DNA of 32,325 nucleotides from Pseudomonadota bacterium. GTDB lineage: Bacteria > Pseudomonadota > Alphaproteobacteria > RF32 > CAG-239. Shown here piece after piece: positions 14,591 to 24,382 of this stretch. Made by a program: the position numbers and the translations under genes. A model generated the notes under the pieces. It saw nothing but the letters and a program-made list of their open reading frames with translations. It made no database searches and was not told the origin of the DNA. Where the stretch lies: the NCBI GenBank assembly GCA_030536665.1, contig JAUNPO010000003.1, positions 1 through 32,325 of the forward strand. Direction: 5' to 3'. Each line of letters begins with the position of its first letter. Positions within the stretch are counted from its first letter, which is position 1.

Positions 14591-14678
14591 GGAGAGTTGG
14601 CAGAGTGGTAATGCAGCGGATTGCTAATCCGTCATCGTGAATAACGATGCACAGGTTCGAGTCCTGTACTCTCCGCCA
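14591..14678 (+). tRNA. tRNA-Ser (anticodon GCU)
   Basis: GGAGAGTTGGCAGAGTGGTAATGCAGCGGA-TTGCTAA-TCCGT, long variable arm, GGTTCGAGTCC, CCA end. Confidence 0.95.
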
Positions 14679-14735: not shown

Positions 14736-14741
14736 CCTTTT

Positions 14742-14920
14742 TGCAGCGGCTGATTACCGTTGTGAGGTTTAGAACCCTCTTAAAAGTTTTCTGTTAATCA
14801 GATGTAAAAAACTGCCTTTTGGCTTATGGCTGGAAGGCAGTAGAATATGTTGAATATACTGCACTATTACTTTTAATAGGTTCTAACTTCCAGTCTCCTT
14901 TCATCAGGGAGGCTTTTTTG
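14742..14920 (+). ncRNA. C4/CI-like antisense RNA leader module, copy A
   Basis: Two 5' hairpins with target TTAGAACC and TTAAAAGT. Cloverleaf 14828-14895 (P1 GGCTGGAAG/CTTCCAGTC, P2 GCAGTA/TACTGC, P3 CTATTA/TAATAG) carries ACTTTTAA and GGTTCTAA. Terminator-like hairpin at 14892-14920. Confidence 0.7.
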
Positions 14921-14949
14921 TTTTATTCTATGCAAAATATGAGGAAGTT

Positions 14950-15621
14950 ATGAAAAAAAGTGTTTTGTTTTTGATGTGTTTTTTGTGTTCCTGCCGCTCG
15001 ATAACTTATCAGGACGTTAATCCGCTTATTCAGCCGAATGCCAACCTTTTGCCGGCTATGGAGAGTATTGTCGACGTCAGTAATCTGGAGGCGACTTACA
15101 CGGTCAGTTCCTATGCCGGGACGACCAACAATTTCGGGACGACGTTGGGAAATACAAATTGGGCTCAGACAACGGCTATTTCCGGCGTTTCATATAAAGA
15201 TCCGCGGGTTCAGGATGTTATTAATGTTTTCAACAAAGAAGTTAAGGAAAACATCACATCGCCTTATGGCGCTAAGAAAGGGTATATTGTTCTGACATTG
15301 GGATACAGAGGGGTGGATCAGTCGTTTATTTATCCGTTTGTGTCTTTGTTTAGCCTTGGAACCATAAATTTCTTCGGTTTTCCGGGAGATGAGGTGAAAC
15401 AGTCCTTGGAGGTTGAGGTCGAAATCCGCAATAACAACAAGGAGCTTGTCAAGCGTTATGTTGAGAATGTTATAGATACACAGTATGTTGCCATGTATTG
15501 GGGATATAGTAAAGACAATGTCTGGAGAAAAGTTGCGGCAGACAATATAAAACAGGCTTTGCAAAAAATCAGGGACAGAATTAACAGTGATGCCGCCGAA
15601 ATTAAAAAGAAATTGAAATAG
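14950..15621 (+). CDS. Putative lipoprotein
   Basis: MKKSVLFLMCFLCSC lipobox-type signal; GAGG RBS; internal hydrophobic segment. Confidence 0.75.
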   Translation: MKKSVLFLMCFLCSCRSITYQDVNPLIQPNANLLPAMESIVDVSNLEATYTVSSYAGTTNNFGTTLGNTNWAQTTAISGVSYKDPRVQDVINVFNKEVKENITSPYGAKKGYIVLTLGYRGVDQSFIYPFVSLFSLGTINFFGFPGDEVKQSLEVEVEIRNNNKELVKRYVENVIDTQYVAMYWGYSKDNVWRKVAADNIKQALQKIRDRINSDAAEIKKKLK

Positions 15622-15708: not shown

Positions 15709-16866
15709 TTACAAAGGATTGCTTTCAGGTGAAAGCAGTGCAATATAGCCGGCGTAAGCGTAAGTCTGTCCCCATTTTTTCTCGGAGGTATTCGTGATGA
15801 TTCCGAGCTTTATAAGGCGGTTGATTGAGCTGATAATTGTCGGGCGGGCAAGATTGATTTTCTTTTCAATTTCAGCAACGGTTAAAACCGGCTTTTGTTC
15901 AAATTGTTGCAATATTTCTAAAGCAGACGGATGAGCGCGACCTAAATCTTGCAGCTTATTTTCATCTTCAGCAAAAAGTTTTTGAATTTTGAGAATCGTT
16001 TTTCTGGCATCATCAGAGGTTTCAATAATTCCCTCCAGGAAGAAATTAAACCAGTTTTCCCAGTCGCCGTCATAACGGACATTGTTTAGGTATTCATAAT
16101 ATAATGAGCGGTTTTTCTTAAAAAATAAGCTAAGATAAAGAAACGGTGATTTTAAAATTCCTTTAACACATAAAAAGAACGTGATCAGCAGACGTCCCAA
16201 TCGGCCGTTGCCGTCTAAAAATGGGTGGATGGTTTCAAATTGCACATGAATCATTGCGGCTTTAATCAATGTAGGAATGTTATCTTCTTTATTCATAAAG
16301 ACTTCCAACTGTCCTAAAATATCCATCAGTTTATCCGGCGGACAGGGAACAAATCTGGCATTGCCCGGTCTGGTGCCGCCAATCCAGTTTTGTGAAGAGC
16401 GGAATTCTCCCGGCAGTTTGGTCTTACCTCGGGAATTTTTGAGCAAAATAGCGTGAATTTCCTTAATTAATCGCAAGGATAAGGGGAAGTTGTCATTAAT
16501 TCTTCTAATGCCATAATCCAGGGCAGTAACATATGATGACACTTCCGAAGCATCAGCAACGGGAATTCCTTGTGTCTGACTGGCTTCGTATTTCAGTAAA
16601 TCATCTAAAGTAGATTGCGTTCCTTCTATTTGAGAGGACAACAGCGCTTCTTTACGGACATACATATAATTGATAATCGCCGGATTAGGAACTGTTGAAA
16701 TAACGCCATTTAGGGCGCCAATCGCCTGATTAGCTTTTTCTAACAGAGGAGATATGGCTTCCAAATCAACAGTCGGCTTTGGTGGCAAGACATTCGGGAC
16801 ATATGCCTGATAGCTCTCGGAGCTTAGGGAACATTTAATCAATTTTCCTTGAATACCTCTTTGCAT
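15709..16866 (-). CDS. Fic family protein (class II) with probable C-terminal HTH
   Basis: Canonical HPFLDGNGRLGR motif; N-terminal SSQIEG autoinhibitory motif; GGAGG RBS. Confidence 0.93.
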   Translation of the reverse strand: MQRGIQGKLIKCSLSSESYQAYVPNVLPPKPTVDLEAISPLLEKANQAIGALNGVISTVPNPAIINYMYVRKEALLSSQIEGTQSTLDDLLKYEASQTQGIPVADASEVSSYVTALDYGIRRINDNFPLSLRLIKEIHAILLKNSRGKTKLPGEFRSSQNWIGGTRPGNARFVPCPPDKLMDILGQLEVFMNKEDNIPTLIKAAMIHVQFETIHPFLDGNGRLGRLLITFFLCVKGILKSPFLYLSLFFKKNRSLYYEYLNNVRYDGDWENWFNFFLEGIIETSDDARKTILKIQKLFAEDENKLQDLGRAHPSALEILQQFEQKPVLTVAEIEKKINLARPTIISSINRLIKLGIITNTSEKKWGQTYAYAGYIALLSPESNPL

Positions 16867-23693: not shown

Positions 23694-23722
23694 TTGCAAT
23701 AATCATGATGTTATGTTACGTT
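23694..23722 (+). promoter_or_regulatory. Sigma70-type promoter driving leader B
   Basis: TTGCAA-17bp-TACGTT with TG extension, about 7 nt before the first leader hairpin. Confidence 0.6.
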
Positions 23723-23728
23723 TTTGTT

Positions 23729-23935
23729 TAAGCGGCGGAGTTTTGCTGCTTAGGGCGTCAGAAACCCTTTTAAAATAAACAGTCGCCAAGCATAGCGACT
23801 TAAAACTATATGCCGATTTCTGTCATGGACGGATGTCGGCTAAATAAGGTTACGGCCAAATAAGCCGAGCCGTTGTTTGTTTATTTTATACGGTTTCTGA
23901 ACATCCGCCCGCCTTTATCAGGTGGGTTTTGTTTT
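23729..23935 (+). ncRNA. C4/CI-like antisense RNA leader module, copy B
   Basis: Two 5' hairpins with target TCAGAAACC and TAAAATAAACA. Cloverleaf 23827-23910 (P1 GGACGGATGT/ACATCCGCCC, P2 CGGCT/AGCCG, P3 GCCGT/ACGGT) carries TGTTTATTTTA and GGTTTCTGA. Terminator-like hairpin at 23907-23935. Confidence 0.72.
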
Positions 23936-23959
23936 AACTAGAACGAAAGGATGTTTAGA

Positions 23960-24382
23960 ATGAAAAAAGTATTTTTACTTTTAACTATTGGTGTATTTGC
24001 TGGTTTTCTTACGGCTTGTGCTACAATCATGAGGGAAAACAGTCAATCTATACCAATTAAATCAAATGTAGAAAAAGTTAATATAAAAATTACCAATAAA
24101 GTGGGAGAGCTTATTTTTGAAGGCCAAACACCGACAACATTAACTCTTAAAACTTCGGGCAAGAGCGGATATTTCAATCCTGAGAAATATACGGTTGTTG
24201 CTTCCAAAGACGGGTATCAGACACAAACGACTATCATTGACTGGCATGTCAGCGGTTGGTATTATGTTGGAAACCTTGCTTTGGGCGGTTTAATTGGATA
24301 TTTGATTGTCGACCCAATAAGCGGAGATATGTATTATCTGGATGAAGAAGTTAATTTAAATATGTCTCCTGTTCAGAAATAA
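23960..24382 (+). CDS. Putative lipoprotein (PEGA-like, beta-rich)
   Basis: MKKVFLLLTIGVFAGFLTAC lipobox; CATI..Q.I.I.S, GQTP and C-terminal GGLIGYLIVDP pattern; AAGGA RBS fits ATG 23960. Confidence 0.8.
   Translation: MKKVFLLLTIGVFAGFLTACATIMRENSQSIPIKSNVEKVNIKITNKVGELIFEGQTPTTLTLKTSGKSGYFNPEKYTVVASKDGYQTQTTIIDWHVSGWYYVGNLALGGLIGYLIVDPISGDMYYLDEEVNLNMSPVQK

Follow-up and report, generated by a model that had tools for sequence, protein, structure and literature searches.

A folded RNA leader was analyzed in a 32,325-nucleotide (nt) stretch of DNA from an alphaproteobacterium (lineage RF32; CAG-239; contig JAUNPO010000003.1 of assembly GCA_030536665.1, positions 1 to 32,325), which is called the window throughout. 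This element, copy B (23,694 to 23,935, forward strand), is probably a member of a large family of cis-regulatory 5′ leaders of gut Alphaproteobacteria, which would act as bistable attenuators that are off by default. The helices of the leader, its pseudoknot, both alternative helices, and the complementarity between the Shine-Dalgarno (SD) region and an anti-SD segment are each supported by covariation. We infer which fold is on and which is off, termination in vivo, and the closed fold as default. A distant member of the family, copy A, lies in the same window.

Family size, distribution and downstream genes

The genome of origin (1,944,118 bp in 229 contigs) was searched with copy B using nhmmer, which returned 31 matches at E < 1e-5. 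A covariance model (R1) was built from 26 intact copies of this genome, with copy A not among them. Searching the genome and its relatives with such a model had been proposed in the original prediction, and R1 found 37 places in the genome of origin and matched 35 of 61 genomes, including 31 of the 36 others of the same family and 3 of the 24 from other families in the class (1 to 35 matches per genome). The genome of origin thus has about 35 copies of a folded leader RNA of about 200 nt, which lies ahead of genes for surface or secreted proteins.

Copies in the genome of origin have a fixed order of promoter-like element, structured RNA, terminator, SD region and start codon, with four short variable blocks. 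Each of the 31 strong copies precedes a gene, or a contig end, in the same orientation. Paralogs of one cysteine-rich (Cys-rich) secreted protein family of 260-340 amino acids (aa) follow 26 of the 31 nhmmer matches; this protein family has 26 loci in the genome (e.g., L002:383-1306 and L013:394-1419) and carries the motif MNINFKFLLLGTSLSLIP..AQC.... Of the other five matches, two (copy B and the copy on contig C220) are followed by genes for small lipoproteins, one by a different gene, and two by contig ends. Four downstream proteins, including the lipoprotein-like protein of copy B and the Cys-rich family, were scanned against Pfam and gave no family match. The Cys-rich family had 658 unnamed relatives among 1118 candidates from a large protein collection, and the records containing it were titled as uncultured gut Alphaproteobacteria.

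For 28 best-match loci in other genomes, the gene after the RNA encoded a B-type lipoprotein in six (L097, L099, L100, L104, L106, and L115), a C220-type lipoprotein in two and a Cys-rich protein in four, the rest being signal-peptide proteins of about 495 aa, outer membrane protein-like proteins, pilin-like proteins, and others. Because the B-type gene follows the RNA in other genomes as well, copy B stands in a conserved orthologous context. No description of the leader family was found in the literature on RF32 riboswitches and CAG-239 gut Alphaproteobacteria.

Several loci departed from this arrangement. Within a record of another genome (loci L035-L091), Cys-rich genes had the same promoter type (TTGCAA..TGnTACACT) and a short 5′ untranslated region without a leader RNA; among the 41 loci of this record with a full flank, 29 were without any scored motif and 8 had the leader. 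An element of about 275 nt resembling a miniature inverted-repeat transposable element (MITE), whose terminal inverted repeats span about 32 nt each, was located at one point of the P6 loop in five leader copies of the genome of origin (contigs C75, C175, C25, C62, and C108; L025, L026, L028, L029, and L030), two of which were at contig ends. At L026, L028 and L182 (genome of origin) and at L032, the 3′ part of the leader was replaced by a promoter-like TTGATTT...TGTTATAAT and a canonical AGGAG SD, followed by a Cys-rich gene. The stretch after the insertion was identical in L026 and L028 despite different 5′ codes, which suggests recombination.

Closed fold and pseudoknot

Nested minimum-energy folding of copy B with ViennaRNA gave -89.9 kcal/mol, compared to -59.1 +/- 4.7 kcal/mol in 200 shuffles (z = -6.6; no shuffle was equal). 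Segment TCAGAAACC (23758-23766) is perfectly complementary to GGTTTCTGA (23892-23900), and TAAAATAAACA (23771-23781) is perfectly complementary to TGTTTATTTTA (23878-23888); direct reading of the sequence thus placed and paired all four segments as in the original prediction. That prediction had also named compensatory change as the sign of selection on RNA structure, and this was borne out. Across 101 members from about 30 genomes (alignment A4), 95.2% of the cells of the closed fold were paired and double changes occurred in 36 of 50 pairs (614 cells vs 152 in shuffles), while none of 500 shuffles was as good and slid controls reached at most 52%. Double changes were present in all six model pairs of the P1 hairpin, in 10 of 13 pairs of P4, and in all eight pairs of the terminator; the 3′ strand of P4 has alternative partners. 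Pairs of variable segment 1 also covaried (CG 63/AU 23/GC 10; GC 37/AU 36/GU 26; AU 52/GC 26/CG 12/UA 11).

The original prediction of two long-range pairs held as far as complementarity is concerned, and the second pair proved to be a pseudoknot with a hairpin loop rather than part of one long nested helix. The P6 stem GCCGU/ACGGU covaries to GCCAU/AUGGU, GCUG/CAG, and GCCGA/UCGGU while the 5′ ACCC stays constant, and therefore the second variable pair is not nested. The single nested helix through both variable pairs that appeared in the minimum-energy fold was ruled out on these grounds. Likewise, ACCCUUU of J2/3 is not paired with ACGGUU, because it remains constant where the supposed partner GG varies. 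Variable pair 2 joins J2/3 to the P6 loop in a pseudoknot, and variable pair 1 makes up the inner portion of closing stem P2. A local hairpin AGGG(N8-9)CCCU fitted a few variants (L120 and L105), and its register in copy A differs.

Pseudoknot counts were made on 100 members, with L122 left out because the region is missing there. The mean duplex energy was -7.1 kcal/mol for cognate and -1.2 kcal/mol for non-cognate partners, and the cognate loop ranked first in 83 of the 100. The geometry was narrow: a helix of 7-8 bp in 85, 0 nt to P3 in 96, a 5′ linker of 1-3 nt in the P6 loop in 88, and a 3′ linker of 0-1 nt in 97. The junctions AGGGCGU, ACCCUUU, UUAAAAU, and AAUAAGG were near-invariant across genera. 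L122 (G007:C54) is a 190-nt member scoring 155.8 bits that is without the P6/pseudoknot-loop region.

Alternative fold and link to the Shine-Dalgarno region

A second, C4-like fold was found in which ACAUCCGCCC, made up of the anti-SD and the 5′ arm of the terminator, is the partner of the P4 3′ strand GGACGGAUGU, and UCGGC pairs with the downstream GCCGA (P5x). The ten pairs of this closing stem were 90.6% paired, with double changes in 6 of 10 and slid controls at most 52%; P5x was 94.2% paired, with double changes in 6 of 6 pairs (99 cells vs 32.8 in shuffles). Both helices were counted on an alignment that was not fitted to either. They share columns with P4 or the terminator, so that the C4-like helices exclude P4 or the terminator, and the C4-like closing stem takes its 3′ end from the 5′ arm of the terminator. 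The arrangement is that of an intrinsic-terminator attenuator, with a G+C-rich hairpin and U-tract between promoter and start codon and a competing, covarying helix.

The anti-SD AACAUCC, in the P2a 3′ strand, is the exact complement of GGAUGUU (23949-23955). This match was 7/7 in 58 of 100 members and 6/7 in 24 more, and it fell into three covarying classes, AACAUCC/GGAUGUU (48), AACACCC/GGGUGUU (9), and the AACUUCC/GGAAGUU of copy A, with the P4 3′ strand varying in step. The GGAUGUU motif is unusual for an SD and is specific to element-linked genes: AAGGATGTT occurred 44 times in the genome of origin, 24 of them no more than 450 nt downstream of an element, and AAGGAGG occurred 146 times with none near elements.

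Copy A as a distant member

With filters off, model R1, which was built without copy A, gave it a full-length match of 40.8 bits (E = 4e-10 in the window). Because a model without copy A matches it from end to end, the two copies have one architecture, as the original prediction had claimed, and copy A is a distant but true member. Its fold was also more stable than shuffles (z = -4.2), its variable pairs lie at 14769-14776/14879-14886 and 14780-14787/14869-14876, its anti-SD matches its SD at 7/7, and its alternative stem GGCUGGAAG:CUUCCAGUC is paired 9/9. Two short motifs had been named as further marks of this likeness. AUGG was found in copy B at 23825-23828, just ahead of the strand that the original prediction had called P1, and ATCAGG occurs in both terminator loops (23917-23922 in copy B, 14903-14908 in copy A), with no conservation in other members.

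Variable pairs as possible specificity codes

In the 26 own-genome copies, the 5′ and 3′ variable segments of the same copy paired at -16.5 kcal/mol, compared to -6.4 +/- 2.5 kcal/mol for non-cognate combinations, and the cognate partner ranked first in 23. There were 94 distinct J2/3 strings in the 101 members. The two modules reassort, with one in common in each of L008/L009, L007/L011, and L003/L005 and both in common in L019 and L023. The closest inter-genome pairs (95.5% and 90.6% identity) keep their codes, and more distant pairs have compensated or swapped modules. Mean identity was 0.2-0.4 in variable columns and 0.3-0.6 in spacer and loop columns, the variable columns being at saturation like spacers. 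For a test of diversifying selection, ten loci of one sister record held too few changes. A cognate site of the a2/b2 type was absent from the 400 nt downstream and the 150 nt upstream, where downstream cognate and non-cognate energies were the same (-5.3 vs -5.3 kcal/mol), and no second genomic site for the long variable codes was found in the genome of origin.

Relationship to C4, sRNA-Xcc1 and S-box leaders

Searching the whole window against Rfam at gathering thresholds returned two tRNAs only. With permissive settings, 18 of 20 members had full-length matches of the 3′ half to sRNA-Xcc1 (RF02221); their scores of 25.6-39 bits, like the 32.2 bits of copy B, did not reach the gathering score of 53. 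C4 (RF01695) was matched in 2 of the 20 members (26.9 and 25.4 bits; gathering score 45) and was absent from the matches listed for the other 18 and for copy B. In the reverse direction, R1 did not detect the phage P1 leader (best score 6.6 bits).

C4 is reportedly processed by RNase P to an RNA of about 77 nt that acts in trans. Its fold of a long closing stem, two hairpins and a single-stranded joiner is also present in the leader family. The C4 joiner (a′) and hairpin-2 loop (b′) are complementary to upstream a1 and b1 on one transcript, which holds in every intact copy here. The annotated order in phage P1 is promoter, a1, 7-nt gap, b1, C4, a2, b2, and icd, and in its sequence b′ follows UUU within the loop of hairpin 2 and a′ lies in the joiner, which is the layout of variable segments 2′ and 1′. 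Further likenesses to P1 C4 are the a1-b1-type gap of about 7 nt, the short U-rich linker, a closing-stem 3′ strand ending in GCC(A/G)CC, and the position directly ahead of the ribosome-binding site of the regulated gene. Unlike C4, the leaders have a non-phage context with Cys-rich secreted proteins or lipoproteins downstream in place of icd/ant genes, have no a2/b2 sites but a constant anti-SD in the closing-stem strand that matches the SD, carry an intrinsic terminator overlapping the closing stem, and number about 35 copies per genome. C4 and c4-a1b1 are listed as motifs by Weinberg et al. 2010 (PMC2864571), and one account of C4 (PMC12197685) states that it blocks translation by pairing around the ribosome-binding site and that sequence differences lead to P1/P7 heteroimmunity. 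The C4 analogy of the original prediction is backed by the sub-threshold Rfam matches and by the a1/b1 and a′/b′ positions. A specificity of the P1/P7 type, which had been proposed for each copy, gained no support, with both partners of each pair in one transcript and no a2/b2-like site. Copy-specific "immunity" in trans may nonetheless occur.

In the phage P1 sequence (L187), ACGCCC at 48330-48335 shortly precedes the 5′ terminus of mature C4 and is complementary to GGGCGU at 48347-48352, in the C4 closing-stem strand. Judged from sequence only, a hairpin at 48330-48352 would span the C4 processing site, much as P4 would in the leader family.

The best Rfam match was sRNA-Xcc1, with hairpin 2 (gCcgu...acgGu) and joiner nearly identical. 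It is described as an 88-nt small RNA (sRNA) (PMC2996969). In Xanthomonas integron cassettes it immediately precedes symE and is co-oriented with it (bioRxiv 10.1101/2025.06.18.660453), and it has seven copies in Xylella fastidiosa Temecula1, five of them clustered (PMC12189769). Whereas sRNA-Xcc1 stands alone, the domain here forms the 3′ half of a leader of about 200 nt that adds a 5′ locking half, the pseudoknot, the terminator, and the SD link, and the genes are of the envelope/secreted type and not symE.

S-box (SAM-I, S-adenosylmethionine) leaders are terminator/antiterminator/anti-antiterminator attenuators. The leader family likewise has three competing helices with covariation, namely P4, an antiterminator in which the 3′ strand of P4 pairs with the 5′ arm of the terminator, and the terminator. 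It differs in having no Rfam riboswitch match and in that its antiterminator is also the C4-like closing stem and the anti-SD sequestrator.

Proposed mechanism and alternatives

We favor a bistable attenuator. In the closed fold, the 5′ half would lock the 3′ half, with variable segment 1 paired to 1′ in closing stem P2 and with variable segment 2 and the P6 loop forming a pseudoknot that stacks between P6 and P3. The P4 5′ strand would hold the P4 3′ strand, so that the terminator could form and the gene would be off; in read-through RNA the anti-SD AACAUCC could still pair with the SD. In the C4-like fold, the P4 3′ strand would leave P4 and pair with GCCGA (P5x) and with the anti-SD and terminator 5′ arm, by which the terminator would be removed, the SD freed, and the gene switched on. 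The variable pairs, at the positions of P1 a1:a′ and b1:b′, would serve as an intramolecular lock in which complementarity is constrained and sequence is not. Nested energies favor the closed fold by 11-28 kcal/mol, so the default would be off and an opening factor would be needed, for which a ligand, a protein, processing, or a trans RNA are candidates.

Several points weigh against this interpretation. The alignment used for the closed-fold counts was fitted to the model structure, which favors that structure, and P2a is irregular, with pair 61-285 unpaired in 22 of 101 members. A nested model, which has no room for the crossing variable pairs, puts the closed fold ahead of the C4-like fold by 20-28 kcal/mol in copy B, L008, L098, L103, and L174 and by 11 kcal/mol in copy A and L116; because the closed fold is favored energetically, the on fold would need help, processing, or kinetic trapping. 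A 5′ GGGCG:CGCCC antiterminator was considered first and was rejected, as sequence variants do not compensate and there is no covariation support. The genome of origin is a 229-contig, metagenome-type assembly with 7.5% contamination, in which some near-identical copies may be strain variants, and the E-values of the models are rough.

Each leader might instead release a C4-like antisense RNA (for example by RNase P-type processing between AU and GG) that recognizes, in trans, the a1/b1 of its own locus only, which would give about 35 insulated circuits comparable to P1/P7 heteroimmunity. We consider this unlikely, even though the 3′ domain is similar to C4 and sRNA-Xcc1, the a′/b′ and a1/b1 positions are taken by the variable segments with the 7-nt spacing of P1, and the GCC or ACC tail that follows the closing stem lines up with the C4 consensus. 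The diversity of J2/3 strings, with cognate pairing far stronger than non-cognate, is also in its favor, and a C4-like fold that covaries though disfavored in the intact leader would suit a processed RNA. Having both partners on one transcript favors pairing in cis, however, and no a2/b2-like site was found downstream, upstream or elsewhere in the genome. L019 and L023 would have the same code in both modules and several other copies in one, and diversifying selection is unsupported since the variable columns are saturated like spacer and loop columns. A related idea, which we regard as doubtful, is that the variable pairs are address codes, with the processed C4-like RNA keeping nascent transcripts of its own locus from closing and the gene on, in a locus-specific, self-sustaining feedback. 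If true, it would provide heritable, paralog-by-paralog on/off control of a surface-protein family without DNA rearrangement or methylation. A metabolite or ion riboswitch, in which a ligand stabilizes P4 in a closed-fold aptamer as a SAM-I-type off switch and the variable helices are purely structural, appears improbable to us. The nearly invariant junctions across genera and the compact, pseudoknotted multi-helix core would fit it, as would the terminator/antiterminator/anti-antiterminator layout and the many copies per genome before one functional gene class. The regulated genes point to no ligand, being for surface or secreted proteins without a Pfam match; permissive Rfam scans gave no riboswitch family at E<=1 to 10; and, to our knowledge, the antisense RNAs nearest to the leader family have no known ligand. 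Cyclic di-GMP was dropped as a regulator because the distribution of GGDEF domains does not follow the RNA: G024 has three copies and no GGDEF was found in it, while G002 and G006, which are without the RNA, have four GGDEF matches each.

We see very little chance that the fold is set by an RNA-binding protein acting on the conserved junctions or on repeated GGAUGU-type motifs. GGAUGU-like segments do occur three times (5′ GGGCGU, P4 3′ strand, and SD) and change together across lineages, but base pairing alone explains these shared changes, and the elements lack any consistent link to a candidate protein gene. The context of the SD, ACAAGGAUGU, is similar to the consensus for CsrA from systematic evolution of ligands by exponential enrichment (SELEX); CsrA was dropped as a regulator, as PF02599 was not found in the genome of origin, which is 93% complete. 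That the copies are a selfish MITE-like repeat, or chance inverted repeats without RNA function, seems scarcely credible. The copies are many and dispersed, and their DNA does contain inverted repeats, but the position and orientation here are fixed between promoter and start codon, the inverted repeats are all internal, with no terminal ones and no target duplications, G-U pairs take part in a covariation that is specific to one strand, and the copies are conserved across genera before orthologous genes. The true MITE inserted in five copies, with terminal repeats of about 32 nt, looks quite different.

Feature coordinates and surroundings

The features of copy B, its downstream gene, and copy A are listed in Table 1. 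The promoter-like arrangement TTGCyA-17-TGnTAcccT was kept at the same position in the own-genome copies, with a variable spacer, and a simple consensus promoter scan missed the element of copy B. The distance from T-tract to ATG in copy B is 24 nt. Four sets of contigs from relatives, aligned here, covered only 23751-23940 and portions of the downstream gene.

Table 1. Coordinates in the window of the elements of copy B, its downstream gene, and copy A
Feature	Position	Strand	Description
Promoter-like element	23695..23723	+	TTGCAA 23695-23700, 17-nt spacer, TGn + TACGTT 23715-23723
P1 hairpin	23729..23752	+	Arms 23729-23738/23743-23752; predicted fold
P2 5′ strand	23753..23766	+	GGGCGU (P2a) 23753-23758 and variable segment 1 (a1-like) 23759-23766; partner 23892-23906
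J2/3, nearly invariant ACCCUUU	23764..23770	+	Constant in L171, L175, L176, and L119 although the supposed nested partner GG varies
Variable segment 2, 5′ strand (b1-like; pseudoknot strand)	23771..23781	+	Complementary to 23878-23888; abuts P3
P3 hairpin	23781..23800	+	AGUCGC/GCGACU; 98.7% paired, double changes in 4 pairs
P4 hairpin	23812..23840	+	5′ strand 23812-23824, 3′ strand 23828-23840; proposed anti-antiterminator
Alternative C4-like closing stem, 5′ strand GGACGGAUGU	23827..23836	+	Partner 23901-23910; from Rfam alignments
P5 and extension P5x	23836..23868	+	P5x, UCGGCU 23836-23841 with AGCCGA 23863-23868; excludes P4 base
P6 hairpin	23869..23894	+	GCCGU 23869-23873/ACGGU 23890-23894; loop holds variable segment 2′ (b′-like) 23878-23888
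Variable segment 1′ (a′-like) and anti-SD	23892..23906	+	Segment 1′ 23892-23899; AACAUCC 23900-23906
Intrinsic terminator	23907..23935	+	Stem-loop 23907-23927, T-tract to 23935; 8 pairs, 5 G-C, T-rich tail (terminator scan)
SD region GGAUGUU	23949..23955	+	4 nt ahead of ATG 23960
Downstream gene	23960..24382	+	140-aa lipoprotein-like protein (MKKVFLLLTIGVFAGFLTAC...)
Copy A, distant member	14738..14922	+	Anti-SD AACUUCC 14885-14891, SD GGAAGUU 14943-14949, gene 14950-15621

A tRNA gene whose variable arm is long, followed by a hairpin and T-run, immediately precedes copy A (14591-14675). The gene of copy A adjoins a minus-strand gene (15709-16866) for a protein of the Fic/DOC family that has a winged-helix domain at its C terminus.

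Significance

C4-type RNAs have so far been phage immunity antisense RNAs and a few stand-alone sRNAs. Here, a C4-type module has apparently been recruited as a chromosomal leader in dozens of copies, tied to a terminator and to the ribosome-binding sites of genes for surface and secreted proteins, in an uncultured family of gut Alphaproteobacteria. The leader family marks a regulon of envelope proteins without assigned function, and it offers a natural series of about 100 variants of a bistable, pseudoknotted RNA with both folds supported by covariation. The role of the a1/b1 sites upstream of C4-like RNAs, a long-standing question, becomes testable. If the variable pairs are true specificity codes, they would represent a new way for many independent switches to operate in one cell.

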